Positions 27,753-61,124 of a stretch of 64,000 nt of DNA are shown piece after piece. Positions within the stretch are counted from its first letter, which is position 1, and the number at the start of each line of letters is the position of its first letter. Position numbers and translations under genes: made by a program. The stretch is from a virus (Duplodnaviria > Heunggongvirae > Uroviricota > Caudoviricetes). Under the pieces are notes generated by a model. That model saw nothing but the letters and a program-made list of their open reading frames with translations, was not told the origin of the DNA and searched no databases. The stretch lies in IMG/VR virus record IMGVR_UViG_3300032018_000003; one strand, given 5' to 3'.

Positions 27753-28029
27753 TATTAACCTCTAAATATTCTTTTGCTTTATTAAAATTATATTTATTAG
27801 AATAACTATATTCACCTTCTATAGATATATTTACACACGTAAAACTATCATAAAGAATAACATCGTTTGTTTTATAATTATAATAACCTTTATAATTACA
27901 AAAATCTTCTGCGGTTGTTAAATCTTCATATATTGACATCCCCATTAAAATAGGTCCACCAACTATACACATTGAAATTATTAATGTAAAATAATCTATT
28001 TCTCCTTTTTTATTTTTAATCTGTTGCAT
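27736..28029 (-). CDS. small type-II membrane Cys protein inserted between polB fragments (97 aa)
   Basis: MQQIKNKKGE start plus a transmembrane segment. It is a paralog of 27390..27752. Confidence 0.45.
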   Translation of the reverse strand: MQQIKNKKGEIDYFTLIISMCIVGGPILMGMSIYEDLTTAEDFCNYKGYYNYKTNDVILYDSFTCVNISIEGEYSYSNKYNFNKAKEYLEVNNVTTD

Positions 28030-32119: not shown

Positions 32120-32974
32120 TTATTTAAAATCTCCGTTTAATCCGTGGGTTTCTTTTATTTTTTGTATTTCCTTTTCACTAAAAAAATCATTTTTAAGTTT
32201 AACTATTTTTTTAGTGTCTGTGTTTTTATCAACCATATCTAATATATTTTTTATTACTATATTTTTAGATTTGATTTCTCCTACACCACAACAATTATTA
32301 TTCGCATATATGTTTTTGATTATAAATAAATTATTATCATACAATTTAATTTTTTCTATAAGTTCTTTTATTTTTTTATTTAAATTATTTTTTGTATTAT
32401 TGTATCGTTCTTTATTATTAATATTTTCTAATTCTTTTTCTAATTTTATTAATTCCTCTTTATATTGTTTTGATAATTCACTCAAATCAAAATATGTTTT
32501 CTTAGTTACCTTTTGTAAAACTTTAGATTTATACTTCCATATAAATTCATATTCGTTATTATTCATCTTGAATAATATTAAATTTTTAGCATAAGTTTTA
32601 CCATTAAATATCCAAAGCATTTTATCATAAAACTTTTCACGATTTTTAATATCTTCGGAAGAAATAGGACTATTTTGAAATTCTACAACATATTTTTCAT
32701 TAATCATAACATCTGCAATATGTTTTGTTAATTGTTTTTGTACAATAATTTCTCTATTATTTAATGGAAACTTGTTTTTCCATTCTACGTGCCACTGAGT
32801 TTCTCCCTCTGACCAAGTATCACAATCAGTTCCTTTTTTATGCGCCCAATGCCACACATTAATATCTCCACATTTAGATATTACTTCCTCACCACATAAT
32901 TGACACATTCCTTTTTTTCCTGGTTCTGCAACCGTTTTTTCATTATTACTGTTTATTACATACAACATTTTCAA
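32120..32974 (-). CDS. CoiA-like (competence protein CoiA family) nuclease-domain protein (284 aa)
   Basis: CQLCGEEVISKCGDINVWHWAHKKGTDCD...WH has the CoiA-like Cys cluster plus HWAH. Confidence 0.5.
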   Translation of the reverse strand: MKMLYVINSNNEKTVAEPGKKGMCQLCGEEVISKCGDINVWHWAHKKGTDCDTWSEGETQWHVEWKNKFPLNNREIIVQKQLTKHIADVMINEKYVVEFQNSPISSEDIKNREKFYDKMLWIFNGKTYAKNLILFKMNNNEYEFIWKYKSKVLQKVTKKTYFDLSELSKQYKEELIKLEKELENINNKERYNNTKNNLNKKIKELIEKIKLYDNNLFIIKNIYANNNCCGVGEIKSKNIVIKNILDMVDKNTDTKKIVKLKNDFFSEKEIQKIKETHGLNGDFK

Positions 32975-32978
32975 TCAC

Positions 32979-35681
32979 CTAAAAATCTTCTTTAATTCCT
33001 ATCTGTACTCCAAATAAGGAGGATTCTTTTTTTGGTTCTTCTATTACTTTATTATTTTCTTTTTTTGGTTCTATAGCTTTAAATCTAACGTTTCTATAAT
33101 AATAATCTCGTTGTCTATCCACCATCGTATTTTTATAATCTACTCTTAATATATTTCTTAAATGGTAATTAAAGGTGTTTACTGTATCTATTTCTAAATC
33201 GTTTTCTCCACAAAATTGTGCGTATGCGTCTAATAACATATCTCTTTCAATACTACTTCCACTACAAAATTCAAGACGTCCAGAAATATATTTTTCCGAA
33301 CTACACCCATATATCTTAAATTTGTTTGTTATATCTTCTATAGAATCATTATAACTAAACCCGTTTTGATTTAATATTCTTTTTAATCCTTCTATTGCCC
33401 AATTTAATATTCCTGACATCTCATCTTTACTAAATAAAATGTCGTTTATTACATCGGGATTTCCTTTTTTAATAAGTTTTTTTTCGTCTTCGTTTACTTT
33501 TAATATCTCACTATCGTAATTTTTTTTATCATAAAATTTATATTTAAATTCTATTATCTTAAATCTTAAAAAAGAAGCCTTTGTTTTATCGTCTGGGTCT
33601 GGCATGGTGTTTAAAGATATAATATGCTTTGCAAATGGAGTAAAATCAAGAGATGATAAAAATTTTCTTTTTGCTGATTGCGTGTCTCCCCCCGTTAATT
33701 TTTTAATAGTATTCATATTAATTTTTTTATTTTTATCTACCTCAGAACTTATATTAATATATTTAGAATGTAATTCAGATAATTCAAAAGCATCACTTGC
33801 TAAATTAGATAATTCGAAATTTTTATAGTTTGTTTTACCAAACATTTTCTGAATTATTTTTAAAAATTTACCTTTTCCGTTTCTACCTGAACCAATAAGC
33901 ATAAGAAATTTATCAAATTTAGGAGTTCTGTGCAGACAATAACCAACAAACTCTTGTAAACTTATTTTGTCTTCTATGTTTTGTTTTATATCAATTCCGC
34001 GTTCATCTTTACTTGGCCCAATAACACTATCTAAAAATATTTGAAATTTGTTGTATTCTTTTTCTGAATTGTATGAAACATTTAATCTACTAAAAAATTT
34101 ATATTTTGGATTATAATTAATTAACTTATTTTGCTTTAAATCGTATAAACCGTTTCTTAATGGTATTAAATAACTCGGTTCGTCTGCAAACAATATTTTA
34201 GAATCTGTTTTTGTTGATTCTATATGTTCCATTATTTTATTAAATTTTAAATCTGTATAAGAATTAATTACTGTATTATCATCTAATATATCGTTTTCAA
34301 ACATATCGTAAACTATTTTTTTTAATGTATCTCTTCCATTATTAATATATATACCATTAGTATAAACATATACTTCTGAATGACTTTCGTTTTTTGTAAT
34401 ATAAATTTTATAATTATCTAATATATAATTAACTGCTAAATCCACCCCTTTAGATATTACTATAGGACTTTTACTTCTCATTAAAAAATGTATATCACGT
34501 AACACTTGTGTTCTTTCTTCTTCGTTTTTATGACTTAAATTTAATGGTATTGGTTTTAAATCATTGTGTAGTGCAATAGTTTCTTCAATGTATTCTTTTT
34601 TCATGTCGTCATCTAAAGACAAAAAATATTCTTTATCTTCTTCTTCTGTTATATGAGAATAAAACTCGTCAAATATATCGTTAATGTTTTTTTCTGCCCA
34701 TTTAATTTTTTTCCCAACACATTCTATTTTCCAATGGTCACATATCTCTTGCATTGCGGTTTTAAATGTTATTTCTTCTCCTGAATCTACTTTATGTTTT
34801 GCCTGCCACAACGAAAAAATATTATATCCTTTTGCTTCATGATAACAGTATGCAACCTCGTCATTTATATGAAGGTTTCCTTTTCCATGCATATCATGTA
34901 ATGGACATTTAACTACGGTGTTATTAGATACATCTGTCCCCATATATTCTAAAACATCTTTTATTTTTACTTTCTCACATACCGCCTGCATAAAAGGATT
35001 TAGTTTTTTTATTTTATTTTCTTCTTCTTTTATTTTATCTTCGGTGTTTAATTCAAATGTTTTTTCTAATTCGTTTAATGTTAAATTTGATATTTCACAG
35101 TCTTTAACAATTTCATATCTTCTTCCTGTACCTCTATTAATAGAATTTGGTCCAACAACTTGAGACCCCCTTCCTTGTAAATCTACAAGGGTTGTTCTTT
35201 TTCCATCAACTTCGATAGATACGGGTTTTTTCTTAAATTCTTTATCTAAAAAATAATAATAATGATATAACCCACTTCCACCGGTTTTTACTATAAGAGT
35301 GTCTTTTAAAATTTTTTCTTTTTCTTTTTGATATGTTTCCTCATCAAAATCTATAACTACAAGATTATTAACCCCACATAAAACTCCATAATTATTAACT
35401 TTTATATGATTTAATAGTTTATTATCATCATATCTATAATTAGTACAAAAATCTTTTAAAAATCTTATCTTTACTTTTTTGTTTTCTTTCTTTTCTGAAT
35501 CTAAAATTTCAATAATGTTTTGGTCTTCAAGACGTTGTAATGCAGTTTTATATCCTGTTGTTACTATATCCCCTGTTTTAAATCCGTTTTCTTTGGTATA
35601 AAATAATTCTATTGGTGTTTTTTCATTCAATAGAACGAATCTAAACATATCTTTTTGTAGAACTTTAGGTATTTGAATCAT
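32979..35681 (-). CDS. D5-like primase-helicase (900 aa)
   Basis: A C-terminal SF3-type P-loop LIGSGRNGKGKFL is present. There is also a Zn-binding CPLHDMHGKGNLHINDEVAYCYH segment and an N-terminal prim-pol-like VVIDFDEE. Confidence 0.7.
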   Translation of the reverse strand: MIQIPKVLQKDMFRFVLLNEKTPIELFYTKENGFKTGDIVTTGYKTALQRLEDQNIIEILDSEKKENKKVKIRFLKDFCTNYRYDDNKLLNHIKVNNYGVLCGVNNLVVIDFDEETYQKEKEKILKDTLIVKTGGSGLYHYYYFLDKEFKKKPVSIEVDGKRTTLVDLQGRGSQVVGPNSINRGTGRRYEIVKDCEISNLTLNELEKTFELNTEDKIKEEENKIKKLNPFMQAVCEKVKIKDVLEYMGTDVSNNTVVKCPLHDMHGKGNLHINDEVAYCYHEAKGYNIFSLWQAKHKVDSGEEITFKTAMQEICDHWKIECVGKKIKWAEKNINDIFDEFYSHITEEEDKEYFLSLDDDMKKEYIEETIALHNDLKPIPLNLSHKNEEERTQVLRDIHFLMRSKSPIVISKGVDLAVNYILDNYKIYITKNESHSEVYVYTNGIYINNGRDTLKKIVYDMFENDILDDNTVINSYTDLKFNKIMEHIESTKTDSKILFADEPSYLIPLRNGLYDLKQNKLINYNPKYKFFSRLNVSYNSEKEYNKFQIFLDSVIGPSKDERGIDIKQNIEDKISLQEFVGYCLHRTPKFDKFLMLIGSGRNGKGKFLKIIQKMFGKTNYKNFELSNLASDAFELSELHSKYINISSEVDKNKKINMNTIKKLTGGDTQSAKRKFLSSLDFTPFAKHIISLNTMPDPDDKTKASFLRFKIIEFKYKFYDKKNYDSEILKVNEDEKKLIKKGNPDVINDILFSKDEMSGILNWAIEGLKRILNQNGFSYNDSIEDITNKFKIYGCSSEKYISGRLEFCSGSSIERDMLLDAYAQFCGENDLEIDTVNTFNYHLRNILRVDYKNTMVDRQRDYYYRNVRFKAIEPKKENNKVIEEPKKESSLFGVQIGIKEDF

Positions 35682-38681: not shown

Positions 38682-39077
38682 ATGTTAAAACCAATACCAA
38701 GAATGAATATAATGGGTAAGATACTAGGCGGCACTACAGCAAGGACTGGCGGTGTAGTAGGCAATATTCTAGGACATAATAAGTTTGGTGGGGCGACAAT
38801 GAGTAGACAGCACCAATGGGGTTCATTCTCAACCACACAAAAGAATTCATTAAGAAAGAAGTATCCTGATTCTGATGGTGACGGAGTTCCTAATAGATGG
38901 GATTGTCAACCCCATAATAAAAGATTCCAAGAGGAAGAAGATGAAGATGAAGAGTATGACCAAGAAGAAAGTAAAAAATATTTTGAAGAATTAGAAAAAA
39001 AGAGAGAAAAAGAAGAAAAAGAAAAAAGAGAAAACTATTTATACTTTAAAGGATGGAAAAAAATGAGAGGAGAATAA
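38682..39077 (+). CDS. thrombospondin type-3 repeat protein with KE-rich tail (131 aa)
   Basis: YPDSDGDGVPNRWDCQP matches the DxDxDGxxDxxD calcium-binding repeat. GGAGG SD upstream. Confidence 0.5.
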   Translation: MLKPIPRMNIMGKILGGTTARTGGVVGNILGHNKFGGATMSRQHQWGSFSTTQKNSLRKKYPDSDGDGVPNRWDCQPHNKRFQEEEDEDEEYDQEESKKYFEELEKKREKEEKEKRENYLYFKGWKKMRGE

Positions 39078-39876: not shown

Positions 39877-42003
39877 ATGTTTAACATAGATAAATCATTA
39901 AAAAATATAATGGGTACTACTAAACGAAGTTCTAACACATTTAATTTTAAACAAAAGTCTCCTATGTTTAAACCAGTAACTTCTAATAGAACTAATAATA
40001 TAGTTAATAATATGTTATCTAATAAACAATACAAACCCGCGTCACCTAAAATGCAGATGCAATGGAAATCATTTTCTACACCAATGAAAAACATTATGCG
40101 TTCTAAATATCCTGATAGTGATGGTGACAGAATACCTGACCGATGGGATTGCAAACCAAATAATCCTTTTATGACAATGGCGTTTATATATCCAACAGAA
40201 CAGGAAATGAAAAGAACTGGTGTTAAAAAAATAAGTTTCCCAGTTAAAAAATTATATAATATGAGAGCTGATTATGGCATTGATAAAACAAAAACATTTC
40301 GTGGAGATAATACATCTTTTAGTAATTCAGAGGAAAGAATTCGTACAAAGATAGAAAATGATTGGCGAGAAAAAAATAAAGAAAGAATAGAATTAAATAG
40401 TAACGTAAATCAACTTTTATTAGATGATGCTATTAGAACAAATACATTGGATGATTGGAACCCGACACGTATAGAACCTCCATATCCTGAAAGAAAAGAA
40501 GTGTTTAAAGAATATGTTAAAGAAGAAAAAGATAAATATGAAAAAGAAAAAGGATTTAAATTAGGTTCTCCAAAAATAAAAAAAAGTAGTTATTATTATG
40601 TTGCGACTTTACCAATAAAGTTTACTAAAGAACAATTAAATGAAAAAAGAAAAAATGTAATGGTAACAGGTCATACACAAGTAGAAGAAGATTTTATGGG
40701 TAGACATGGTGGGTATATTCCAAATTCTCCTGAAGCTGATAAATATATGAATAATTTAACAGAAGCTATACAATCAGAAAAACCACTCGTGCCACCAATT
40801 GATTTATCTATGAACGATATAAGAAATAAACATACTGGTGAAGCTCGACATAGATTAAGTGTATTACAAAATATAAAACAAAAAAATGTAGATATTATAG
40901 TACCAGACACTCACGATTATAAAACTATAATACATAAAGGAAATTTAAAAATAGTTCCTAGAAGTGAAGAAGAAGAAAAAGAATGGAGAAGAAACAGAAC
41001 TCCAGTAGAACAAATATATCCGGAACATGCACCAATAGAAAAACAACAAGAGTGGAAAAATACACCAGAAGCAGAGAAGGAAGTTATTAGAGAATTATTA
41101 CCCGATGGTGATGGTGACAATAAACCAAAAGGATTTGATTGTGATGATACTAATAAAAATAAACAGGATAGTAAACCTAACAGATTAATGCGACAAAGAA
41201 TTGATAACGCAAATATTCAATTTCTTCATCCAAACGTCAAAACTGCTTTTCGTAATCAATCTTCAATTATACCAGATAAATATAGACAAAACGTTTTTAT
41301 GGGAACTTTAAAAAGACATCCAGAAATAATAACAGAAATAGAACGTAAACCCAAAGTTTCTTTTATGTTATATAACGAAAAAGAATATAAACAAATGTAT
41401 CCTGAAAGAAAAAATATACCTAACGGCGTAATGTTAAGTCAATCATATAATCGTTTACATGGCGAAGATTTGGAAGATTCTCTTGTAGTAGCATTAAATA
41501 TAGATAAAGGGGCAAATCGTTCTCCACAACAAAGAGCAAGAACAACACTACATGAGTTTGGACATGTTCATAGTTATCAAACACAACCAAAAGGTGCTTT
41601 TGTAGAACGGTATGGTAGAGAATTAGCAAGAAAGGTTCCGTATGAGGAACTGACAGAAGAAAAAATAGCAAACGAATACGCCGATTCTATAATGTATGCT
41701 GCTCCAGAAGAAAAAAGATATAATGAAATTACTAATATAAAAGCGCAAGAAATAAAAGAAAGGGATGAAAGTTCAAAAAAACAAGGAGTTTCTCGAGAAG
41801 AAATTGTTCCACAACTAGTAGATGAATGGAATTCTTTTTTAGATGAACAATCAAACGTTGTAAAACAAAAAAAAGAAGAACGATCTTATGAAGAGCATAG
41901 AAAATTATTTAATGAAGATACTCCTATAGAACCCTCTATCGAACAAGATACTCAAGAATACCCTCGTGACAGAGAAGATAAAATGAACGTGTGGGAAAAG
42001 TAA
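39877..42003 (+). CDS. HExxH zinc metallopeptidase with two thrombospondin type-3 repeats (708 aa)
   Basis: TTLHEFGHVH zinc motif. YPDSDGDRIPDRWDCKP and LPDGDGDNKPKGFDCDD repeats. The N-terminus is a paralog of 38682..39077. Confidence 0.55.
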   Translation: MFNIDKSLKNIMGTTKRSSNTFNFKQKSPMFKPVTSNRTNNIVNNMLSNKQYKPASPKMQMQWKSFSTPMKNIMRSKYPDSDGDRIPDRWDCKPNNPFMTMAFIYPTEQEMKRTGVKKISFPVKKLYNMRADYGIDKTKTFRGDNTSFSNSEERIRTKIENDWREKNKERIELNSNVNQLLLDDAIRTNTLDDWNPTRIEPPYPERKEVFKEYVKEEKDKYEKEKGFKLGSPKIKKSSYYYVATLPIKFTKEQLNEKRKNVMVTGHTQVEEDFMGRHGGYIPNSPEADKYMNNLTEAIQSEKPLVPPIDLSMNDIRNKHTGEARHRLSVLQNIKQKNVDIIVPDTHDYKTIIHKGNLKIVPRSEEEEKEWRRNRTPVEQIYPEHAPIEKQQEWKNTPEAEKEVIRELLPDGDGDNKPKGFDCDDTNKNKQDSKPNRLMRQRIDNANIQFLHPNVKTAFRNQSSIIPDKYRQNVFMGTLKRHPEIITEIERKPKVSFMLYNEKEYKQMYPERKNIPNGVMLSQSYNRLHGEDLEDSLVVALNIDKGANRSPQQRARTTLHEFGHVHSYQTQPKGAFVERYGRELARKVPYEELTEEKIANEYADSIMYAAPEEKRYNEITNIKAQEIKERDESSKKQGVSREEIVPQLVDEWNSFLDEQSNVVKQKKEERSYEEHRKLFNEDTPIEPSIEQDTQEYPRDREDKMNVWEK

Positions 42004-42394: not shown

Positions 42395-42988
42395 ATGGTA
42401 AATGAATTTGAAGACAGCGAAGAACAACCGCCAAAAGAAGCAGGATTTTCTAAGACTTTTGAAGACACTACAGAACCACAAACAGATGACATAATGGCAT
42501 CCGGGTCAAACAGTATTACTTTTGATTGGAAGAATGCTAAGAAAAAATCTAAGTTTGCAGCAAGAACCGACCTTAATGGTAAAACAGTAGAAATCGTTTC
42601 TGCCGATATTGAAATTCCAGGAGTAGACTTACCTTGGAGCACTACAAGAGACAAAACAAAAAAGGTTAAATACTGTACATTGAAAATAACATATGATAAC
42701 GGGCAAGGCGAAAATTTTTCAGGGGTAAGAATATTTGAAAGAATAGAAAAAGGTAAATCTCTTTATTCGCAACCTAGCTGGACTAAGGATAGACAAAACC
42801 AAGCAAGTGAATTGTTAGGATATTATGCAGACTTTAAGAAAAAGGATATTAATTCTGTGGACCCAAATACTGAACTGATGTCGTTTCTAAACAGCCATCC
42901 GAAAGTATTAATTAAATCTGTCGAAGTAGAAAATCCTAAGACAAGAGAAAAGTTAAAGAAAAACCTAATTGGTTCTTTTATTAATTAA
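42395..42988 (+). CDS. hypothetical protein (197 aa)
   Basis: ORF from track. The promoter motif ACAAACTATATAAATACC lies upstream. Confidence 0.35.
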   Translation: MVNEFEDSEEQPPKEAGFSKTFEDTTEPQTDDIMASGSNSITFDWKNAKKKSKFAARTDLNGKTVEIVSADIEIPGVDLPWSTTRDKTKKVKYCTLKITYDNGQGENFSGVRIFERIEKGKSLYSQPSWTKDRQNQASELLGYYADFKKKDINSVDPNTELMSFLNSHPKVLIKSVEVENPKTREKLKKNLIGSFIN

Positions 42989-43045: not shown

Positions 43046-43387
43046 ATGGAAAAAATAATTTGGAACAATAAAATAATAAAAGCAGATTTTAAAAAAGGAG
43101 ATAGAATTAAAGTTATTAATACTTTATTAATGTGTGGGCAATATTATAATTATGCAAGAATTTTTATGAAATATAATATTATGTTAGAAGTTAAAAAAAT
43201 TCATAAATGTACACATTGTAATAAAAAAACAAAACCGTTTTTCACGTATGGATGTAGTATAATAAAAAAAGATAATGATAAATTAATAAAAACATTGGAA
43301 AAAGTAAAAAAACCAGACGATGTTTTAATATTTGATTATGCAACATTATTATATTATTATAGATGTAATGATATAAAAAAGGTATGA
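43046..43387 (+). CDS. hypothetical protein with CTHCNKK motif (113 aa)
   Basis: ORF from track. Confidence 0.3.
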   Translation: MEKIIWNNKIIKADFKKGDRIKVINTLLMCGQYYNYARIFMKYNIMLEVKKIHKCTHCNKKTKPFFTYGCSIIKKDNDKLIKTLEKVKKPDDVLIFDYATLLYYYRCNDIKKV

Positions 43388-45561
43388 AAATGATAAGAAG
43401 TTCATTTTCCCAAACTAATATGTTTAGTCACTACCCTCGTCAATGGTATTTTAAGTATGTATTAAAGATTAAGGAAGTATCAGATTTTTCTTACGCGAAT
43501 GGTGGTACAGCCGTACACAAAACCGTTGAACAATTATTATTAAAAAACATAACTGAAATTGAAGCATTAAAAGAATTCTTTAATAACCAATGGGATAGTT
43601 TTAATTTAAGTAGTTCTATAATAAAACATATGAAAGACAAATATTGGTTAATGGTACTTAATGCAAGAGAACGAAATATTGAATGTACCGATATAGAAAG
43701 TGAAATAAATTTTCCTGATGTTCGTATGTTTTTAGATATATTAAATAAAAACACTTGGGAAATTAGAGATTTAAAGACGAGTAAACGTGATGATAAACAC
43801 GATAAAGAATATACCGATCAAACATTACTATACGCGTGGGGAATATTGCGACAATATAATGTACTCCCGAGAAAACTAACTGTCGATTATTTACAATATT
43901 CCGGTAGTAAAGGTATATTAGAAATTGTACCAACACAACAAGACATTGATAGAATTTCTAAATGGTATAACGATTGTGGATCAGAAATGGAAGCGTTATC
44001 TAATTTAAAGATTTGTCCAGCTAAATGTAAAGAATGTAACCCGTGGTGTAGTTTTACAAAAGAATGTGCTGCAGAAGAGAATGAATTTACTGTTAAATTA
44101 AATATATGGAACAGTTTAATATTTATTAATTGCGAGTTTAATGATATAATAAATAAACAATTACATAAGAAATTTAGTTATGTTCAAACCAAAGACGCAT
44201 ATATGAATAAGAAATGGAACAAACAAAACCCCACTATAGATTTTTATAATGAAACTAAACATAGTTTACCATTAGGGTTTAAGACACAACTAATAAAAAC
44301 GTTTACTGATTATTGTGAATGGAAGAAATGTAAACTAAATTTAATTATTAATGATACACGCCAGTTTAATGAAGCTAAAATAATAATGCCAGAAAAATTC
44401 TTGAACGGAAATGAGTTAAGATACTATCAAAAGGATGCAGTTAAAGTAGTATTAGATAATAAAATTGTTTCAATACAGTCCGCAACCGGAAGTGGTAAAA
44501 CAGAGATGTCAATAGATGTTATTAGACAATTAGGATATAAAACATTGTTTATTGTCGATAGAAAAGAATTAATGAAACAAACAATAGAACGAATAGAAAA
44601 ATGTTTAGGTGTAGAGGTTGGTAAGTTAGGTGAAGGGGAACGAGATTTAAAACATATTACTGTTGGTATGATACAAACAATTAATAGTAACATAAACAAT
44701 AACGATCAAGAAATTATAGATTATTTGAAAACAATTAGGTTTACTATATTTGATGAAGCTCATAAATGCGCAGCAGATTCTTTTATTACATTAAATAAGT
44801 GTCTTAATAATTCTGAATATAAACTTCTTATGTCGGGAACTTTAAGACGTAATGATGGAGAAGATATGAAATTATATTCTATTGGTGGTGAAATTAAATA
44901 TACCAAACAAGCAAAAGAATTAATAAACGAAGATATCCTTATGAATCCTAAAGTTTATTTTATTAAAGATTATATGACACGCGAACAAGAACACGAAATA
45001 AGACTATCGTGTAGTACAGGATTAATTAACGCGGAAGACCAATATCCTATTTTTTATGATAAGTTTATCGTTACAAATAGTTTAAGAAACGAATTAATAA
45101 AACAAGTAGTAGATGTAGTTAGTAAAAACAACAAGAAAGTTTTAATATTAGTTAAGTTGATAGAACATGGAAAAATATTAGAACAGTTAATTCCTAATAG
45201 TAAATATTTGTATGGCGAAACACCAAAAAAGGAACGGGAAGAAATATTTAACGATTTTTCTCATGGTAATCTTAATGTAATGATTTCTATGGTAACGATG
45301 ATGAGTGAAGGATTAGATTGGCCGTCACTTGAACTTTTTTTGATGGCGAGTGGTATAAAAACAGATAATAAAATAATACAAGGCATTGGCAGAATATTAC
45401 GTAAATGTAAAAATAAAGAACAACCAAAATATATTGATTTTATGGATTATGGTGGTATGATTAGGAATGCCAGCGTGTGTAGACGTCGTGCATTAAGACG
45501 TGAAGGATATTATATTAACGAAGTTACATTAGACGAGTTCATAGAAACACAAACTATATAA
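43384..45561 (+). CDS. Cas4-like RecB-family nuclease fused to SF2 DEAH helicase (725 aa)
   Basis: N-terminal nuclease motifs and the Cys cluster CPAKCKECNPWCSFTKEC. C-terminal helicase motif I SATGSGKT, motif II FDEAH and motif VI-like QGIGRILR. Confidence 0.6.
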   Translation: MKMIRSSFSQTNMFSHYPRQWYFKYVLKIKEVSDFSYANGGTAVHKTVEQLLLKNITEIEALKEFFNNQWDSFNLSSSIIKHMKDKYWLMVLNARERNIECTDIESEINFPDVRMFLDILNKNTWEIRDLKTSKRDDKHDKEYTDQTLLYAWGILRQYNVLPRKLTVDYLQYSGSKGILEIVPTQQDIDRISKWYNDCGSEMEALSNLKICPAKCKECNPWCSFTKECAAEENEFTVKLNIWNSLIFINCEFNDIINKQLHKKFSYVQTKDAYMNKKWNKQNPTIDFYNETKHSLPLGFKTQLIKTFTDYCEWKKCKLNLIINDTRQFNEAKIIMPEKFLNGNELRYYQKDAVKVVLDNKIVSIQSATGSGKTEMSIDVIRQLGYKTLFIVDRKELMKQTIERIEKCLGVEVGKLGEGERDLKHITVGMIQTINSNINNNDQEIIDYLKTIRFTIFDEAHKCAADSFITLNKCLNNSEYKLLMSGTLRRNDGEDMKLYSIGGEIKYTKQAKELINEDILMNPKVYFIKDYMTREQEHEIRLSCSTGLINAEDQYPIFYDKFIVTNSLRNELIKQVVDVVSKNNKKVLILVKLIEHGKILEQLIPNSKYLYGETPKKEREEIFNDFSHGNLNVMISMVTMMSEGLDWPSLELFLMASGIKTDNKIIQGIGRILRKCKNKEQPKYIDFMDYGGMIRNASVCRRRALRREGYYINEVTLDEFIETQTI

Positions 45562-45775: not shown

Positions 45776-46480
45776 ATGAAGATTGACAAAACAGAGATAG
45801 TAAACTTTTTTAAGAAAATTAGAATGGATAAAGACGAAAAGATTGAAGAAGCAAAATTTAACTTTGATACTAATGGACTTAAAGTATTAGCAACGTCTAA
45901 TACTAAATCAACACAAGTGAGTGCATTATTAAAACCTGCTGCATTTAAAGAATATGAAAAAATTGGTGTAGTAGCAATAAACGATCTTACTAATGTTCAA
46001 GGAGTATTTGATAGATTTAAAGGAGTTATTACAATTAAAAAAAGTGGTAATTGTATGATAGTGAATGGGGACAACAAAAAAGTTGATATTGAATTGGTAA
46101 GCGAACAGTTTCTTGTAAATGAAAAAGAACCCCAAGGATTAGTTTTTGAGAACGAAATTATTATTGATAGTACAACATTAAAAGAAATTGTTGCAGACAT
46201 TGAACTTAATAAAGAAGCAGAATTAATTGTTACTACAGGAGATAAGGTAGTTAAATTTAGTAATACCGGAAAATATAAATTTGAGACTACACTTGAAGCA
46301 CCATTATGTAAAGTAGGAACTGTAGTAAAATTCGGTCAAGCATTTATTGATGCAACAAAAAATCTTAATGGTATGTTGAAACTACATGTAGGAACAAATT
46401 ATCCATGTAAGATTGTTGAAGAGTCTGATATAAGTACAATAAGTATAATTATTGCACCGCGTATAGCCGACTCAGAGTGA
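45776..46480 (+). CDS. candidate sliding clamp (PCNA-like), weak (234 aa)
   Basis: The size and alternating hydrophobic pattern fit PCNA, and it lies directly upstream of the RFC-like gene. No strict motif was seen. Confidence 0.35.
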   Translation: MKIDKTEIVNFFKKIRMDKDEKIEEAKFNFDTNGLKVLATSNTKSTQVSALLKPAAFKEYEKIGVVAINDLTNVQGVFDRFKGVITIKKSGNCMIVNGDNKKVDIELVSEQFLVNEKEPQGLVFENEIIIDSTTLKEIVADIELNKEAELIVTTGDKVVKFSNTGKYKFETTLEAPLCKVGTVVKFGQAFIDATKNLNGMLKLHVGTNYPCKIVEESDISTISIIIAPRIADSE

Positions 46481-46816: not shown

Positions 46817-47713
46817 ATGACATTCAACCCTAAAGATATTGTTTGGACCGAGAAATATAGACCCAAATTAGTAAACGAAATTGTTGGAGATTTTAAAGAT
46901 AAGATAAAAGAGTATCTTAAAAATTCTGATAACATGCCACATTTTTTATTTTACTCACGTACTCCTGGAACCGGGAAAACAACAATTGTAAAAGCAATCA
47001 TTAATGAACTTGGTTGTGATAGTATAACAATAAACAGTTCCGATGATAGAGGTATAGAAGCAATAAGAGAAAAGGTTAAAGAGTTTGCTAAATCTAAAAG
47101 TAGTAATGGTAATAGGCGTTGTGTATTCTTAGACGAAATTGATGGTGCGACTCGTCCTGCACAAGATGCTCTTCGTAATATAATGGAGACATACGCAAGT
47201 AACGCATTTTTTTGCCTCACATGTAATAATATAAATAAGGTTTCGGATGCGATACAATCACGTTGTGTATGTATAAATTTCGCATACCCAAATAGAGACG
47301 AGATAAAAAAATATCTTGAAATGATATGTGAAAAAGAAAATTTAAATTATACTGATGAAGGACTTGATGAAATATTAAAATATAATTATCCTAGTATAAG
47401 AAATTGTGTTATATGTTTACAAGACTTGAAAACCGAAAGTAAAGATATAACAAAAGAAAATATTAAACCTATTAATAGTATGTTTGAAGAAATGTGGCAG
47501 AAAATAAAAAACAAAGAGTGGAAGGATATTAAAATTATTATAATGGAGAGTACACTTGACGCGAGAGAACTTAATACTTATTTTTGGGAGAAAGCATTAG
47601 AAGAAGAAAATATTAAAATTATTCAAACATGTTGTAGAAATGAAAAGGATATTAGTACTGGTGCAGATGCTAATATTATAGTAGTAACAAGTTTAATTGA
47701 GATGGTAAAATGA
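46817..47713 (+). CDS. rfc: replication factor C small-subunit-like clamp loader (298 aa)
   Basis: WTEKYRP box, P-loop RTPGTGKTT, Walker B FLDEIDG and SRC motif QSRCV. Confidence 0.8.
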   Translation: MTFNPKDIVWTEKYRPKLVNEIVGDFKDKIKEYLKNSDNMPHFLFYSRTPGTGKTTIVKAIINELGCDSITINSSDDRGIEAIREKVKEFAKSKSSNGNRRCVFLDEIDGATRPAQDALRNIMETYASNAFFCLTCNNINKVSDAIQSRCVCINFAYPNRDEIKKYLEMICEKENLNYTDEGLDEILKYNYPSIRNCVICLQDLKTESKDITKENIKPINSMFEEMWQKIKNKEWKDIKIIIMESTLDARELNTYFWEKALEEENIKIIQTCCRNEKDISTGADANIIVVTSLIEMVK

Positions 47714-51750: not shown

Positions 51751-52302
51751 ATGAATATAGAATATTCATTAAAGATGCCAAAGGGTTGGCATAAAAGTAC
51801 AGAACAAGAAAGGTTTTATAGTTGGAGTAATATTAAAATTTCTTTAACTCATTTTGAAAATATAATGAAACTATTATCAGCCAAAGATATAGTTCTTACA
51901 TCGAACAATAACGATTCTGCAGTGTCTGTTTTTTTTACATTATATACAAAACGATTATGTTTATATTTAGATAAATGGGATCGTAGAGAAGATAATATAA
52001 CTGCTATTAGTATGTTCTTAGAAAATCTAATAAAAAGTAAAAAATATGTTGGGGACAACATTGTACTTTATTGTCTTTCTAATTTAAAAGAAAATCCCAC
52101 AACATTAACTTCTATAGTAACTAATATTAAAAAACCATTGTGGTGTAATATATTAGAAGTTGAAGAAACGTGTACTAAGGAAGAAGTTAAAACACAATAC
52201 CATAAATTATGTAAAATAATGCACCCGGACAATGGTGGTAGCGCAGACGAGTTTATATTACTTAAACAGGCGTACGATGAAGGAATGTTGAATGCAAAAT
52301 GA
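51751..52302 (+). CDS. J-domain (DnaJ-like) protein, J domain at the C-terminus (183 aa)
   Basis: EEVKTQYHKLCKIMHPDNGGSADEFILLKQAYD matches helix II, the HPD tripeptide and helix III. Confidence 0.55.
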   Translation: MNIEYSLKMPKGWHKSTEQERFYSWSNIKISLTHFENIMKLLSAKDIVLTSNNNDSAVSVFFTLYTKRLCLYLDKWDRREDNITAISMFLENLIKSKKYVGDNIVLYCLSNLKENPTTLTSIVTNIKKPLWCNILEVEETCTKEEVKTQYHKLCKIMHPDNGGSADEFILLKQAYDEGMLNAK

Positions 52303-53578
52303 AATTTCTTTTGGTATTAAAACAGACGAAGTAAAAGAAACTTTTTTTGATGAGACATTAATAGAAAATAAAAATTCAGTTGAGTTACATAATTGGCAAC
52401 GAGAGGGAATTAAATATTTCTTTAGTAATGGTGGTAAAGCAATATTTAACTGTCCTACGGGAGTTGGAAAAACGTTTTTTGCTATAGAATTATTAAAAGA
52501 AATATTGAAACGAGAACCGGAACTTAGAATTCTTATTGTTGTACCAAAAAATGTTATTATGGAAACGGGTTGGTATCAAGAATTGTATAACAATGGTTTT
52601 GGATTACAAGACATTGGTATTTTTTATGGTAATATAAAAGAAATATGTAAGATTACTATTACAAACATGCAGAGTATAGATAAAATACCATTAGAAATAT
52701 TTAGTGTAATCGTTCTTGATGAAGCACATTCGTACGGGACGACTAAAAATTTAATTTGGGTCGAACACGACTTTAAATATAAAATAGGTTTATCCGCAAC
52801 AATTGAACGTACTGATGGTAAACATTGGGATATAATTAAGGCACATAATTATAATGTTTTTAAATATACACCGAAAGAAGCATTAAAAGACGGAATTCTT
52901 AATACTTTTTATTATTATGATATTGGTGTAGAGATGGATGACAACACCAAACAAGATTATGATAACCTTTCTCAAGAAATTTATATGATGTACCAGATGC
53001 ACGGAAACTATAACATCATAATGCGACGTAAAGATGGTATCACAAACGCACTATTAAGTAAACTAACAAAACGAAAACAAATGGTTAATAACTATAATAG
53101 AAAGTTTGAAGTTATACGAACTATATGTGATAAGCATAAGAACAATAAGATAATTGTATTTTCACAGTTTAATGATCAAACCAATAAGTTATATTGGGAA
53201 TTATTAGAGATTGGTGTCAAAGCAGTAATAATACATTCCGGGGTAGATAAAGAAGAAGTTGATAGGATAATGATGGGGTTAAAAAAACAAGACACTTTCT
53301 GTATTTTAACCACCAAGAAGCTAGATGAAGGTTGGAACCTACCAAAGCTAGACGTTGCAATAATAACAGCAGGTGATAGCTCTGATAGGCAGACAATACA
53401 ACGAATGGGTAGGGTATTACGAAAAAAAGAAAAAGCTAGTGTGTTATATCAAACTTATTGTCTTGATACTATTGAAGAAACGGATGCCATACAACGTGCA
53501 AAAACATTTAAAGAACTTTGTGTAGATTACAAAGAATATGTTTTTTATAATAATGATAACACATTTGTATTAGATTGA
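52292..53578 (+). CDS. SF2 DEAH-box helicase (428 aa)
   Basis: Motif I NCPTGVGKTF, motif II VLDEAH, motif III SAT and motif VI QRMGRVLR. Confidence 0.7.
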   Translation: MQNEISFGIKTDEVKETFFDETLIENKNSVELHNWQREGIKYFFSNGGKAIFNCPTGVGKTFFAIELLKEILKREPELRILIVVPKNVIMETGWYQELYNNGFGLQDIGIFYGNIKEICKITITNMQSIDKIPLEIFSVIVLDEAHSYGTTKNLIWVEHDFKYKIGLSATIERTDGKHWDIIKAHNYNVFKYTPKEALKDGILNTFYYYDIGVEMDDNTKQDYDNLSQEIYMMYQMHGNYNIIMRRKDGITNALLSKLTKRKQMVNNYNRKFEVIRTICDKHKNNKIIVFSQFNDQTNKLYWELLEIGVKAVIIHSGVDKEEVDRIMMGLKKQDTFCILTTKKLDEGWNLPKLDVAIITAGDSSDRQTIQRMGRVLRKKEKASVLYQTYCLDTIEETDAIQRAKTFKELCVDYKEYVFYNNDNTFVLD

Positions 53579-56805: not shown

Positions 56806-59800
56806 ATGGCGTCAACTTCTTCAACAAGTTCAATGAGCACTAACCCAAACAAGGTTAGTTATACTGGATTGGGGTTAAGTGGTGGCAGTTCACCAGTACC
56901 ATCAAGTTCATCTTCTTCTGGCGGTGGTAGTTCTTCATCAGTAAATCCAGGTTCTCTTAATGTTGGTAGTAAATATACAGGCCCACAAAGCAGTAGTTCT
57001 TCAACGCCATCAAGCGGGGCATCAGGTAGTTCTTCTTCAACAAGCGGGTCATCAAGTGGTTCCACTAGTGGTTCAACATCAAGACATTCACATTCAGGCG
57101 GTGGCGGAAGTTCTTCTCCAGCACCAGAAGTTAATGTGTTTGGCGTATCAACACCCGTACAATCATTAGAAGTTGCTTCTAAAGTAGATACTAATATGTT
57201 TGGTATGCAAACATTACAACAAAGTAATGTTCCATCTTCAGCTAAACAAGATACTAATATGTTTGGATTACCACAACTGCAACAGAGCAGTGGTAGCGCA
57301 AACGTTAATATTGACAGGCCTGCAAACTGGGTAAGTAATGAACAGAATACTCCAACAACAGATTGGGGTAATATAGGACTAGGCGAACAACAGCTCATAA
57401 AAAATAATCCTGGTGGATATGTCACTTTTGGTAGTAAAGTAATGCCAAACAAATTCATAACTTCTGGTGAAGGTAGCGGGTATGGTGGAACACAATCTGC
57501 GGAATTTAATGAAACTACCGGTAAATTTGAGATTACTACTAATATAAACTCTCTTGGCGGATTTGCTAAAACTGATATTAAACCAACAACCATTTCGTTA
57601 TCTAAATCAGAGTTTGCTACACAGTATCCAGATATGAGTAAACAGTTTAGTTTAAATAGAGAAAGACTTGCCTCTGATTTTGTACCACAATATTTGAACA
57701 TTGGTTCTAGTTTAGGGTCTCCAGATATGTCTAGTTCTATGAACAAAATATATGGAAAAGTTATGTCTAATATACCACAGTATGCTGAAATTGGTAAAAC
57801 GTTTAATACACAAAATAAAATTAATCAAATATTAGGTACAAATACACCAAATTTACCACAACAATCAAAAACTTTTCAATACGCCCAGAATTTTTTATAT
57901 TCTCCTACTACTGGTAGAGATATTATAACAACAGAACGAAGCGTTATTCCTAGTGAGTATATGAATTTTGGTAGAAGTTTAGGAAATCAGTATTCGCCAT
58001 TACCAAAAGCAAGTCCGTTTGCTCCAATTATAGATATATCTAAATTTAATACGGGTGTTATAAAAGAATTAAATTTAAAAGAACCTTTTATTCCAACGTC
58101 TATTGGTAATATGGGAACACAAGAAAAAGTACAAAACGCACCGTATGTTGATATAACACCAAGAAAAGATACTTCGTTACCACCTTCTGTTTTTGGTGCT
58201 AGTAGTAATAAAGCAGAAAACAAATTTTTAGATTATGTGTATAAAAATTTCGAAATTACAAAAGATGAAAAAAATAGTACTATATATAAAACAAAAAATG
58301 ATATTTCTATAGAAGACGCAAACAAAAAAATAGAAATTGCGAATGCGTTACAACAACAAGCGATTGCAGAAGCCAAAACCGCCCAATTACCAGATAGTTT
58401 TATTGCGTTGCGACAAAAACAAATGAATGTCTTGGATATGGAAAAAACATTTTCTAAAGATTCGTATTCCTTTTCTCCAGACAACTTTCAACAAGCATTG
58501 ACATATCAAGGAGTTAAAAGTATAGGGCAACCAGGAGTATTAAATAAATTATATGGTGGTATATCTTTAGCTACCAATTTAGGAGTAGAATATGTTAAAT
58601 GGGAAGGAATTGGTGCGGTTGCTGGCGCAGGATTAGGATTAGCATCAACAGGAATTGGTAAAGTTGCATCGTTATCAACAAAACCAAGCAATATTCTTGT
58701 AAGAATAAACCCACTATTATCAAAAAGTTCTAATATAATTTCAGTATCTAAACCAATAACAACAAGTACTGGTTTTTTTGGAAATGTAGCAAAACCAATT
58801 TTAAATACCGGTAAAGAAATAGGAAAAGAAACAATCAGTATTTTAGGCAGCACTCCAGGAGTAATAGGATTATCGACAGTATATGGAACATATGAAGGAG
58901 TTAAAAAAGATAGTGTTATTGAAGGAGTAATGGCGGGAGCGACTTTTGGTACGAGCGCATTTGGTTTTGAAAAAGGGTTTGGAGCAATATCAAGTTATAA
59001 AAATATAGAAACTCCATTTTTAGAAAATAAACAGATTTTTACTTCTGAAGTTAAAGGTTCACGACAAATAGAAACTACACCGTTTGAAAGAGGATATAAA
59101 AGCAAAGAAACTTTTAAAGGTACTGGTAAAACTGGAGATTTATTATATACTGGTTATACGACAGTACCAAATTTAAGAACTGGTACAGGAACTATAGAAT
59201 ATGGAATCACAAATTTAAAAAATAAAAATATAGTATTCTCAGGAACGGGAACAATAGATTTATTTAAATCAAAAACATTATCTAGTTCTACACGTGGGGA
59301 AACAACAATTTCAAAAATAGAAACGGAAACAATTTCTAGATTAAATAAAGAAAAAATTCCTACAATAGAAAAAACCACAATAATGAGAATTGGAAATACA
59401 AACACGCCGAATTTTTATAATGAACTTATTTCAAAGGATACTACAACGCCTACAATGAATATATTAGAACAATTTTCTCAAAAAGCGTCTGTATCAAGAT
59501 ATCCTTCAGGAGCAATTAAAACAAATTTATTTCCACAAGGAACTATAGAAACAACAAGTAAAATACTTCCAACAAAAATGGTATTAGGAAATTACAATAC
59601 TTATGTTATTAAACCAACAGTAAGTAAAGTATTTGATGCAGGATTAGACTTAGGTACAAAAATTAAAAGTACTAGTAATATGTTTAAAGGTAAAAAAGCG
59701 ACGGCTGAGGTTGGGTTTGGTAATTTTGGCAATACTTATGGTTCAATGCCAAGACCTGGAGAATTGTTTGGTGAATCAGGATTGATAAAACCTATGGAAT

Positions 59801-60827: not shown

Positions 60828-61122
60828 TAATAAAGGACAAACTGCAAGTACTGGTTGGGCAGTAATTTTTTTCCTATTAATATTAGTACCAATAGCAGTA
60901 ATATTTATTATATTTAATCAAGTAATGAGTGAGTATCTTGTACCAATATCTGGCTCAATGGTAATGAATACCACATCATTAAATGCGAGTGCAAGAACTG
61001 CGATGATTACAGAAATGACGCGGTACGATTTGATATGGTACGCGTTACCGATAGTTATTATTATTGCTTTAGTATTATGGTTAATAATAAATGCTATGAA
61101 ACGAAGAAATGGTGAATACTAA
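60814..61122 (+). CDS. membrane protein (102 aa)
   Basis: Two or three transmembrane segments. Confidence 0.35.
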   Translation: MFTDDNKGQTASTGWAVIFFLLILVPIAVIFIIFNQVMSEYLVPISGSMVMNTTSLNASARTAMITEMTRYDLIWYALPIVIIIALVLWLIINAMKRRNGEY

Positions 61123-61124
61123 AA

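Follow-up and report, generated by a model that had tools for sequence, protein, structure and literature searches.

A viral fusion of a Cas4/Dna2-type nuclease domain with an XPB/UvsW-type SF2 helicase, encoded beside sliding clamp and clamp loader genes

What might an uncultured virus do with a nuclease and a helicase joined in one polypeptide and encoded next to its clamp and clamp loader? Replication and repair rely heavily on helicase-nuclease machines (RecBCD, AddAB, AdnAB, Dna2-Sgs1, XPB-Bax1, and Hef), which are large or multi-subunit. We analyzed such a gene in a 64,000-nucleotide stretch of viral DNA (IMG/VR record IMGVR_UViG_3300032018_000003), hereafter the window. A first-pass annotation made from the sequence had described a single polypeptide with a Cas4-like Fe-S nuclease fused to an SF2 DEAH helicase. 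The ORF list contained a 725-aa frame on the + strand exactly where the gene had been placed, and translation reproduced the coordinates and the strings quoted in that annotation. Pfam searches with both halves found a nuclease in the N-terminus and helicase domains in the rest. The fusion of a Cas4/Dna2-type nuclease domain with an XPB/UvsW-type motor in one chain was thus confirmed. The features of the locus are as follows.

42395–42988, + strand: upstream partner gene, 197 aa, with an acidic N-terminus (conserved in viral loci)
43384–45561, + strand: nuclease-helicase fusion, whole gene, 725 aa (ORF list)
43384–44079, + strand: RecB/Cas4-family PD-(D/E)xK nuclease domain, residues 1–232
43432–43434, + strand: Tyr17, where the C-x-R-x-W/F motif canonically has its N-terminal cluster Cys (alignments, column counts)
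43696–43833, + strand: nuclease catalytic core E105, D118, D129-x-K131, Q146...Y150 (translation, counts in 125 relatives)
44014–44067, + strand: C211-x3-C215-x2-C218-x3-C222-x5-C228, putative metal or Fe-S site (translation, family Cys-class counts)
44080–44412, + strand: middle domain, residues 233–343, shared with the N-terminal region of UvsW-like phage helicases that stand alone
44413–44883, + strand: helicase RecA-like domain 1 with Q motif, motifs I, II, III, and RED-like motif (Pfam ResIII, translations)
44884–45123, + strand: variable helical insertion between the RecA-like domains, residues 501–580 (AF2 secondary structure)
45124–45483, + strand: helicase RecA-like domain 2 with motif VI (Pfam Helicase_C, translation)
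45776–46480, + strand: PCNA-like sliding clamp, the nearest conserved gene on the downstream side (NCBIfam, weak Pfam, synteny)
46817–47713, + strand: clamp loader (RFC / T4 gp44-like AAA+; phrog_168, Pfam, synteny)

The gene is far beyond chance, because its 2.2-kb ORF lies in DNA of 28% GC and full-length relatives were found with E values down to 0. The protein was identical to database entry P0001 (723 aa), encoded on a 97-kb contig. The start in that entry agrees with the second ATG, at 43390, which is probably the true start (723 aa), since the AAAGG sequence (43378–43382) lies 7 nt before 43390 and only 1 nt before 43384.

The N-terminal half matched Pfam PDDEXK_1 (PF12705) over residues 6–224 (E 3.7e-16, 60.3 bits, cutoff 22), and the match spanned positions 2–242 of the 247 in the profile. 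Neither phmmer nor the family profile matched this half to PDB sequences, and tblastn gave no match to it among 50,697 cultured phage records; with these sequence searches empty, a comparison of folds was needed. In whole-protein fold searches the helicase core drew the matches and left the nuclease uninformed on; a separate domain model was used instead. Its predicted structure has the PD-(D/E)xK fold and was closest to AdnAB, Dna2, and Cas4-family nucleases, so that both Pfam and the structure prediction agree with the nuclease proposed for the N-terminus. The proposed conserved catalytic D/E/K set was also invariant or nearly so: D118, D129, and K131 were kept in all 125 relatives, Y150 in 124, E105 in 123, and Q146 in 121. 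A degenerate or inactive domain was rejected because of this invariance; in the window protein the motif reads D129-L-K131. Metal-dependent exo- or endonuclease action on single-stranded DNA is predicted from the family assignment. The nuclease is Cas4-like, not a Cas4: the PADLOC Cas4 match had an E value of only 9.8e-5. A CRISPR-associated Cas4 proper was rejected, as the fusion lies among clamp, clamp loader, and unknown genes, with no cas context.

In Cas4, AddB, and Dna2, the "iron staple" is formed by four Cys ligands, one N-terminal (in a C-x-R motif) and three C-terminal, the latter usually spaced C-x2-C-x5-C. The cysteine cluster of the window protein, CPAKCKECNPWCSFTKEC (44014–44067), contains five cysteines, of which only C218, C222, and C228 line up with C-x3-C-x5-C, the spacing kept widely in this family. 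Position 17, occupied by the canonical N-terminal Cys in 83 of 125 relatives, is Tyr in the window protein and Phe in its closest relative (P0187). The pattern of 1+3 (or more) Cys was found in 69 of the 125 relatives and was lost in 51. Overall, the cluster is kept by about 59% of the family and absent altogether in about 41% (P0012 is one such member), and in a few members the ligand was apparently relocated. From the first-pass description of a Cas4-like Fe-S nuclease, the C-terminal cysteine cluster stands; the Fe-S cluster itself is putative, and it would lack its canonical first ligand, with Tyr17 in that place. The family is thus a natural experiment on whether the iron-staple cluster is needed in Cas4/AddB/Dna2-type nucleases.

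The SF2 core was intact, with the Q motif and motifs I, II, III, and VI all present. RecA-like domain 1 matched Pfam ResIII (residues 344–488, E 2.8e-23) and contained the Q motif (R346, Y348, Q349), motif I SATGSGKT (44479–44502), motif II FDEAH (44749–44763), and motif III with the RED-like motif, SGTLRRNDG (44833–44859). In the RED alignment, SGTLR-R-N-D-G of the window protein corresponds to TATPE-R-D-D-G of StXPBII and TATFE-R-E-D-G of AfXPB. Q349, G371, K372, and D457 were kept in 142 of 142 relatives, E458 in 141, and the RED-motif residues in most of them (R489 in 117, D491 in 104). RecA-like domain 2 matched Pfam Helicase_C (residues 573–674, E 1.2e-11) and, below its cutoff, ERCC3_RAD25_C; the motif VI residues Q666, G669, R670, and R673 (QGIGRILR, 45379–45402) were kept in 140 of 142. 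The insertion between the two domains, which we do not equate with the XPB thumb, was the least conserved stretch within the motor in the same relatives.

The nearest characterized relatives of the motor, by both sequence and fold, were XPB and UvsW. The closest solved motor was Sulfurisphaera tokodaii XPBII (StXPBII; sequence E 4e-24, Foldseek 1e-23), and the Foldseek top matches included its complexes with Bax1 and forked DNA. The phage replication-recombination helicases of phrog_16 were matched with 229 bits. NF045503, the XPB equivalog of NCBIfam, gave 76.6 bits, with a cutoff of 610, which points to a relative of XPB and not an orthologue. No SF1 family was matched by the motor in Pfam. 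The motor is an XPB/UvsW/D10-type SF2 helicase: the SF2 assignment made from motifs I, II, and VI holds, and the DEAH motif is present, but DEAH does not hold as a family label. A DEAH/RHA helicase was rejected because 30 of the 142 relatives have DExQ and no HA2 or OB_NTP_bind match was found by Pfam. The tblastn matches to Herelleviridae helicases start at query residues 233–255 and, on the helicase side, where those genes begin; the T4 UvsW alignment begins at residue 294, and helicase-only relatives start near profile position 235. By analogy with these relatives, 3'→5' translocation and branch migration are predicted for the motor. The C-terminal tail is not conserved, and therefore no clamp binding is claimed; inspection of the alignment revealed no conserved clamp-binding motif at this variable end.

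The fusion was conserved across more than 100 clusters of uncultured viruses at 50% identity. No fused member was found in 185,579 species genomes, and no cultured phage record covered more than 66% of the window protein used as the query; the distribution is restricted to viruses. A nuclease-domain HMM run over 56 loci matched only fused proteins; no standalone nuclease, as expected of a split-gene precursor, was found there beside unfused helicases. One locus, L052, probably holds a fused member truncated where its contig ends, and the contig behind another, L005, is circular and 95.6 kb long. Source annotations call the relatives only "superfamily II DNA or RNA helicase", and we found no description of a nuclease-SF2 fusion of this architecture in the papers searched, in line with the first-pass remark that it is not a standard described one. 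As the family is common in metagenomes, the architecture is undescribed rather than rare.

The position of the gene immediately upstream of the clamp and clamp loader genes, proposed earlier, was borne out, and both genes were found beside the fusion in every locus examined. The clamp matched the NCBIfam "DNA polymerase sliding clamp" family at 9e-9, below the cutoff, with weak Pfam matches to Rad1 and PCNA_N, and was syntenic with the fusion in four other loci. The clamp loader matched phrog_168 at 5e-61 and Pfam AAA and DNA_pol3_delta2; it is 30–35% identical to those of T4-like phages and syntenic across loci. The 197-aa partner was found upstream of the fusion in five of five viral loci, adjacent in three, with 43–47% identity. 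It had no profile match in PHROGs, NCBIfam, or PDB sequences, and Pfam gave only a marginal NAR2; an SSB-like role is our guess. The primase and polymerase are only distantly related to anything cultured, and no tRNA genes were found. A component of a defense system was rejected in view of the absence of fused members from cellular genomes, the Cas4/RecB-type nuclease, and the replication-module context.

With moderate confidence, we read the product of this gene as a viral enzyme that processes DNA with one chain and belongs to the replication-recombination module, in which the motor would feed the 5' strand to the nuclease. The C-terminal SF2 motor would translocate on DNA at the expense of ATP, tracking 3'→5' by analogy with XPB and UvsW, and would act on branched DNA or on DNA ends by opening or migrating them, while the middle domain would aid in engaging forks or junctions. 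As a 5'-ended single strand is displaced, it would pass into the N-terminal nuclease, of the Cas4/Dna2/AdnAB type, to be degraded or clipped there. This would result in 5'-strand resection or in the removal of 5' flaps or regressed-fork arms, and the 3' tails or clean junctions left behind would serve recombination-dependent replication and the restart of forks. In Sgs1-Dna2, RecQ-RecJ, and AddAB, the proposed job is done by separate subunits. The polarity and substrate suggested here are borrowed from distant relatives at about 20% identity. With a pTM of only 0.62, the full-length model does not settle how the nuclease sits relative to the motor or whether a DNA path connects the two. Not every gene in a phage replication module codes for a replication protein. 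Missing partners prove little, because most ORFs of the window belong to no detectable family; a separate recombinase or Mre11/Rad50-type nuclease may be encoded in the approximately 33 kb of the 97-kb genome beyond the window. What the analysis shows is the identity of the domains, their intact active sites, the fold of the nuclease, the viral distribution, and the conserved place near the clamp and its loader; polarity, substrate, coupling of the two activities, and biological role are inferred.

A bolder version, possible but put forward only tentatively, is that of a self-sufficient one-polypeptide end-resection/fork machine built on an XPB/UvsW motor, which would replace a Mre11/Rad50-type (T4 gp46/47) nuclease and prime recombination-dependent replication in a large, apparently strictly lytic lineage of uncultured viruses. 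Its metal cluster would be evolutionarily optional, and in the subclade of the window protein a ligand would have shifted from the N-terminus into the C-terminal loop. Sgs1-Dna2 or AddAB would have its viral counterpart in such an enzyme.

The neighborhood also bears on other roles. If the protein were a Dna2-like Okazaki or flap processor on the replisome, cutting long 5' flaps or RNA-DNA primers on the lagging strand with a motor that only positions it, the nearby clamp and clamp loader genes would point to lagging-strand maturation tied to the clamp. We consider this unlikely: the motor is of the SF2 XPB/UvsW type and not the SF1B 5'→3' type of Dna2, and its expected polarity is opposite, so the domains cannot share one strand in the manner of Dna2. 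The C-terminus shows no conserved clamp-binding motif, and a FEN or RNase H may be encoded in the third of the genome beyond the window. An enzyme that moves along unmodified host DNA and shreds it, in the way of Cas3 or restriction motor-nucleases, or that acts against defense, with viral DNA shielded by base modification, would have the N-terminal nuclease on an SF2 translocase typical of HsdR, PbeA, and SauUSI; the motor resembles PbeA (PADLOC 1e-25), an HKD DNase with an SF2 helicase (PMC10853773), and SauUSI and HsdR were among the fold matches. A C5 cytosine methylase is encoded in the window (29933–31138), and genes of the 7-deazaguanine type (PTPS, GTP cyclohydrolase I, radical SAM) were found a few kb downstream in related genomes. 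This role seems quite improbable to us, since PbeA scored 88 bits and phrog_16 reached the 229 bits given above, nucleases of this type handle single strands or ends, and the protein has no target-recognition or modification-reading domain. The conserved neighbors are replisome genes, not modification genes, and no link to any defense or counter-defense locus was seen; the anti-defense role suggested in the first pass thus found no supporting evidence.

The resemblance to StXPBII, which gave the top sequence and Foldseek matches, including the Bax1 and forked-DNA complexes, together with the XPB-type RED motif (R-x-D-G) after motif III, recalls archaeal XPB, which works with a nuclease partner (PMC7293015). 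An excision-repair enzyme of this kind would use its motor to make a bubble where a lesion or stalled complex lies and its nuclease to incise one strand at the junction. We regard this as very improbable, given the XPB equivalog score below its cutoff and a Bax1 nuclease that is VRR-Nuc-like, of another branch than Cas4/RecB. The nearest nuclease folds are those of resection/exonuclease-type enzymes needing an end, and the context is one of replication, with no damage-recognition partner evident.

Both activities are carried here by one 725-aa chain, and this type of motor-nuclease pairing was found described nowhere in the papers searched. If the proposed strand-feeding enzyme is real, it would provide a compact model of an SF2 translocase passing a strand to a Cas4/Dna2-type nuclease and would show how recombination-dependent replication begins in a major group of uncultured viruses that has no obvious Mre11/Rad50 or RecBCD analogues. 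Genes now tagged only "superfamily II helicase" could be better annotated. The practical value is modest: biochemists or tool builders could gain a small motor-nuclease.

Among known systems, the analogy with AddAB and Dna2 drawn in the first pass applies to the nuclease half, whose fold is nearest AdnAB, Dna2, and Cas4-family enzymes, but not to the motor, which is SF2 and not their SF1. Dna2, a nuclease-helicase of eukaryotes and archaea, has an SF1B 5'→3' motor C-terminal to its nuclease, exceeds 1000 aa as compared with about 725 aa here, has the canonical first Cys ligand that the window protein lacks, and showed no detectable sequence similarity to the nuclease domain of the window protein, a profile of which matched nothing among PDB sequences. 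AdnAB, AddAB, and RecBCD are Chi-regulated hetero-oligomers of bacterial cells with SF1A UvrD-like motors and a C-terminal nuclease, whereas the fusion is a single viral gene with one SF2 motor and an N-terminal nuclease. T4 UvsW, T5 D10, and the Herelleviridae UvsW-like proteins (phrog_16) align with the motor and middle domain from their N-termini, at about 20–29% identity, but have no nuclease domain; phage helicases of the UvsW type act in replication and recombination on forks, D-loops, and junctions (PMC5180179).

Archaeal XPB-Bax1 shares with the fusion a related motor, the closest one solved, with a RED-type motif and a nuclease half; it combines a helicase with a restriction-endonuclease-fold nuclease at forked DNA, Bax1 consisting of a VRR-Nuc-like nuclease and a Cas2-like domain (PMC7293015). 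However, that association is non-covalent and belongs to a cellular repair system, and ours is covalent and viral. UvrD-Cas4-like fusions and YprA-associated Cas4-like nucleases of the PF12705 branch (Hudaiberdiev et al. 2017, PMC5704561) also place a Cas4-like nuclease with a helicase outside CRISPR loci; the former are SF1 fusions in bacterial and archaeal defense-type neighborhoods, and the nuclease of the YprA-like SF2 helicases is an unfused neighbor, whereas an XPB/UvsW-type SF2 motor is fused to it here, in viral replication modules. PbeA, SauUSI, and HsdR have the same order of nuclease and then SF2 motor, and related motors, but the nucleases of PbeA and SauUSI are HKD/PLD and that of HsdR is of another PD-(D/E)xK branch, unlike the Cas4/RecB-type nuclease of the window protein; they are cellular, with a defense context and specificity or modification partners, and the fusion is viral and found in a replication context. 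The fusion is a new pairing of familiar parts, not a new kind of machine.

The open reading frame at 43384..45561 (+), encoding 725 aa, was found exactly where the first-pass annotation had placed it, and all amino acid strings quoted there were recovered on translation, including the following:

44014-44067 (+), cysteine-cluster string CPAKCKECNPWCSFTKEC
44479-44502 (+), motif I, SATGSGKT
44749-44763 (+), motif II, FDEAH

Motif VI was located by translation as well:

45379-45402 (+), motif VI, QGIGRILR

The G+C content across the whole window was 25-33%; an open frame of 2.2 kb is therefore improbable by chance. The product (hereafter, the fusion) has the same sequence as the database entry P0001 (723 aa, encoded on a 97-kb contig), which begins at the second ATG, 43390. 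This ATG is probably the true start, because the sequence AAAGG (43378-43382) precedes it by 7 nt but 43384 by just 1 nt. Residues are numbered according to the 725-aa version.

The N-terminal part, previously annotated as a PD-(D/E)xK nuclease, was indeed assigned by Pfam to PDDEXK_1 (PF12705; residues 6-224, 60 bits with a cutoff of 22), followed by ResIII/DEAD (residues 344-488) and Helicase_C (residues 573-674) domains. Among PHROGs, phage 'DNA helicase' (phrog_16, 1.8e-67) and 'exonuclease' (phrog_69, 6.7e-19) were matched. The earlier assignment of the C-terminal part to SF2 helicases with motifs I, II and VI was correct, the motor being of the XPB/UvsW type rather than of the 'DEAH family'. 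The middle domain (residues 233-343) belongs to the helicase lineage. Helicase-only relatives (about 460 aa) start at the residue 233 boundary, and tblastn matches to 'UvsW-like' helicases of Herelleviridae start at query residues 233-255 and, on the subject side, right at the beginning of the genes; the alignment with UvsW starts at query residue 294.

The AlphaFold2 model, built from a 24-sequence family alignment, was confident (mean pLDDT 87.4), with a pTM of 0.62 that leaves the mutual arrangement of the domains uncertain. Comparison of the nuclease domain with known nucleases gave scores of 13.4 for RecE, 13.0 for MGME1, 12.1 for Cas4-Cas1, 12.0 for Cas4, 11.5 for AddA, 11.4 for SSO0001 Cas4, 10.8 for Exo5, 9.3 for AddB, 8.7 for RecB and 8.0 for lambda exonuclease; the modelled fold appeared closest to the AdnAB, Dna2, AddAB, RecB and Cas4 nucleases. 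No PDB sequence was matched by this domain using phmmer or the family profile, nor was any match found by tblastn in cultured phages; this resemblance in fold could not be shown by sequence methods alone.

A word-indexed search revealed 27 further two-part (nuclease plus motor) proteins with 37-69% identity, on contigs of up to 129 kb. When 1.84 billion cluster representatives were searched exhaustively with a profile, at least 150 matches were obtained; those listed all had E <= 1e-101, and most of them were 680-790 aa long and covered the whole profile. At the 50% identity level, the family thus comprises well over 100 clusters; it is common in metagenomes, and in databases its members are labelled only 'superfamily II DNA or RNA helicase'. 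The catalytic residues of the nuclease were kept across the relatives: among 125 complete domains, H45, D118, D129 and K131 were invariant, and Y150, E105 and Q146 were present in 124, 123 and 121, respectively. The motor was analyzed in 142 full-length members free of inteins, whose identity to the window protein ranges from 25% to 69% (median 30%): Q349, G371, K372 and D457 were found in all sequences, E458 in 141, and Q666, G669, R670 and R673 in 140. Such conservation in both domains indicates that the predicted nuclease and motor activities are held together by selection.

Inteins of about 190-370 aa were present in at least 13 relatives (P0003, P0007, P0024, P0044, P0054, P0090, P0091, P0099, P0122, P0123, P0153, P0164 and P0182) at two helicase sites, given here as window equivalents:

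44488-44502 (+), near residues 369-373, within motif I (Walker A)
44755-44760 (+), near residues 458-459, within motif II

The fusion gene of the window contains no intein. Inteins at such ATPase-motif sites are typical of indispensable replication and recombination ATPases.

An N-terminal C-x-R-x-W/F motif retained its cysteine, which we take to be at the first-ligand position of Cas4/AddB/Dna2-type nucleases, in 83 of the 125 relatives. The widely kept C-terminal set, C-x3-C-x5-C, corresponds to C218, C222 and C228 of the window protein, which has Tyr17 (43432-43434) at the N-terminal position and five C-terminal cysteines (C211, C215, C218, C222 and C228). In its closest relative, P0187 (the 730-aa protein of the P0002 cluster, 69% identical), this position is occupied by Phe and the extra upstream cysteine is shared; P0003 and P0015 also lack the N-terminal cysteine and have four C-terminal ones. 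This suggests that in these members a ligand has moved from the N-terminal to the C-terminal cysteine region; in the subclade of the window protein, the N-terminal cysteine was apparently lost (to Tyr or Phe) and an extra upstream one gained. The 1+3 (or more) pattern was found in 69 of the 125 proteins and a 'C-terminal only' pattern in 5, and 51 (about 41%) had two or fewer cysteines in the region, the latter falling in two different sequence contexts. The putative metal-binding cysteines are, judging by the alignment, evolutionarily labile, and the 51 depleted members indicate that the cluster is dispensable for family function. Of the Fe-S site proposed earlier, the cysteine cluster stands; Fe-S itself is unproven, the pattern of the window protein is non-canonical (Tyr17), and the putative metal may be either Fe-S or Zn.

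No fused member was found among 185,579 bacterial and archaeal species, each represented by one genome, where only the helicase part was matched (identity <=29%), and no cultured phage record covered >66% of the query. At least one full-length member was present in IMG/VR on an 82.6-kb viral contig, and another relative was encoded on a 95.6-kb contig called circular by VirSorter. Found on viral contigs but not in these cellular genomes or cultured phage records, the gene seems restricted to uncultured viruses, probably strictly lytic, with genomes of about 95-130 kb and 25-30% GC.

The clamp and clamp-loader genes reported downstream of the fusion were confirmed as part of a block recurring in the window and four other viral loci: it consists of the genes for a 197-aa protein, the fusion, a clamp of the PCNA type and a clamp loader resembling RFC/gp44, together with two more conserved genes. 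The 197-aa protein was encoded upstream of the fusion in all five loci, adjacent to it in three:

42395-42988 (+), window
9386-9982, locus L001
9312-9983, locus L004
8022-8618, locus L005
9362-9946, locus L051

These proteins are 43-47% identical, have an acidic N-terminal tail and gave no recognisable family in profile searches; they may be functional partners of the fusion, perhaps DNA-binding. The block is broken up by non-conserved ORFs, probably selfish insertions, in the window (43046-43387 (+), a 113-aa Cys-containing ORF that separates the fusion from the partner gene and whose stop codon overlaps ATG 43384) and in L005 (8668-10014, 12429-13268 and 14214-15395, including DUF4379 and homing-endonuclease-like DUF559 genes). 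The 129-kb viral contig bearing the relative P0020 contains a TnpB/IS605 OrfB-like gene (HTH_OrfB_IS605, Cas12f1-like_TNB; L001 3048-4307).

Replication genes are also present in the rest of the + strand arm of the window and in the adjacent - strand arm:

26060-27385 (-) and 28016-28783 (-), family B polymerase
29933-31138 (-), C5 cytosine methylase
32120-32974 (-), CoiA-like nuclease (CoiA_N and CoiA nuclease-like domain)
32979-35681, PrimPol-D5 primase-helicase
52292-53578 (+), second, unfused XPB-like SF2 helicase, 428 aa, lacking a nuclease domain

RecA/UvsX-like, Rad50/SbcC-like, FEN and RNase H proteins were not recognised in these 64 kb; however, no family was detected for most of the ORFs, and the window leaves about 33 kb of the genome uncovered. 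The CoiA-like gene, adjoining that of the primase-helicase, adds a further candidate PD-(D/E)xK-type nuclease to the replication module. The second XPB-like helicase is 22% identical to the fusion's motor, has a RED-like sequence after motif III as well ('ERTDG') and gives a stronger match to PbeA/dnd_restrict_1 than was obtained with the fusion. The 255-aa and 441-aa polymerase ORFs (PolB/Pol II matches of the latter being weak) correspond to different parts of one 753-aa ORF (IMG/VR locus L052, 3792-6053) and are separated by ORF 27390-27752 (-); the polymerase seems to be divided in two, which may mean a genuinely split gene, an element lying between the parts or a frameshift introduced by sequencing.

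At about 36 kb, gene orientation, GC skew and AT skew all flip: up to this point the genes lie on the - strand and the skew is negative, and beyond it the genes lie on the + strand and the skew is positive. The primase arm and the fusion-bearing arm diverge from this junction, possibly a replication origin or divergent promoter region. The products of 38682-39077 (+) and 39877-42003 (+) have in common the motif 'KYPDSDGD(G/R)(V/I)P(N/D)RWDC', resembling the calcium-binding thrombospondin-type-3 repeat; the latter (708 aa, with a homologue in L004) repeats a similar 'DGDGD...FDCDD' element. Two ORFs are very large. No family was matched by 56806-60441 (+; 1211 aa). The ORF at 61116-63998 (+; at least 961 aa, running off the window) contains a Laminin_G_3 (concanavalin-like lectin) domain, probably encodes a fibre or other structural protein and marks the start of a structural module.

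In the fusion, a RecB/Cas4-type nuclease whose active site is intact is joined to an XPB/UvsW-type ATPase whose motifs are intact; the fusion is kept over deep divergence and has a fixed place in a viral replisome gene block. The characterised relatives of the motor work on branched DNA: in recombination-dependent replication, UvsW and T5 D10 perform branch migration and act on forks, D-loops and junctions (PMC5180179), and XPB, which opens DNA, has the Bax1 nuclease as its partner at forked DNA (PMC7293015). The closest nuclease folds (AdnAB, Dna2, AddAB, RecB and Cas4) belong to enzymes degrading a single strand that a motor feeds to them or that is threaded in by its free end. From these two sets of relatives, we propose that the motor would track 3'->5', as XPB and UvsW do, open ends or branch points and hand the 5'-ended strand to the N-terminal nuclease; either 5' resection or the trimming of flaps and fork arms would result, priming recombination-dependent replication or restarting forks. 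We give this proposal as a whole slightly better than an even chance.

A Dna2-like processor of Okazaki flaps, acting with the adjacent clamp, is in our opinion unlikely. Still less probable is a role in shredding host DNA that lacks modification, or in some other kind of conflict: the domain order resembles that of HsdR, PbeA and SauUSI, and base-modification genes occur in these viruses, but the replication context of the gene, the end-dependent type of its nuclease and the better match to phage replication helicases argue against it. Regarding such genes, L004 (15866-21078) and L005 (18558-20891) encode PTPS (QueD-like), GTP cyclohydrolase I and radical-SAM proteins within a few kb after the clamp loader, which suggests 7-deazaguanine-type DNA modification in the related genomes; deazaguanine genes were not found in the window. 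An excision-repair enzyme similar to XPB-Bax1 is the least probable of these alternatives.

Helicase-nuclease fusions are a well-known kind of protein (Dna2, AddAB, AdnAB, RecBCD, Cas3, HsdR, Hef, WRN). The Cas4 phylogenomics study presents two arrangements of PF12705 domains, namely fusion with UvrD-like SF1 helicases, in defence contexts, and association without fusion with YprA-like SF2 helicases; the combination with an XPB/UvsW-type motor was absent from it (PMC5704561). In the global survey of dsDNA-virus replication proteins, close viral homologues of Dna2 were not found (PMC4889955). No description of an XPB/UvsW motor fused to a Cas4/Dna2-type nuclease was found in the literature searched, which does not prove that none exists. 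Overall, the first-pass observation was confirmed and its interpretation supported, with corrections on Fe-S, helicase class and abundance. The pairing of motor and nuclease types and the optional metal cluster are noteworthy and readily testable points for specialists, though not very surprising. In PbeA (PMC10853773) and SauUSI, an HKD nuclease is joined to an SF2 motor related to that of the fusion, and the partner of XPB, Bax1, is VRR-Nuc-like and a protein of its own. The XPB/UvsW-type motor is therefore repeatedly combined with nucleases that differ in fold, and its pairing with a Cas4/Dna2-type nuclease in the fusion is one more such combination.
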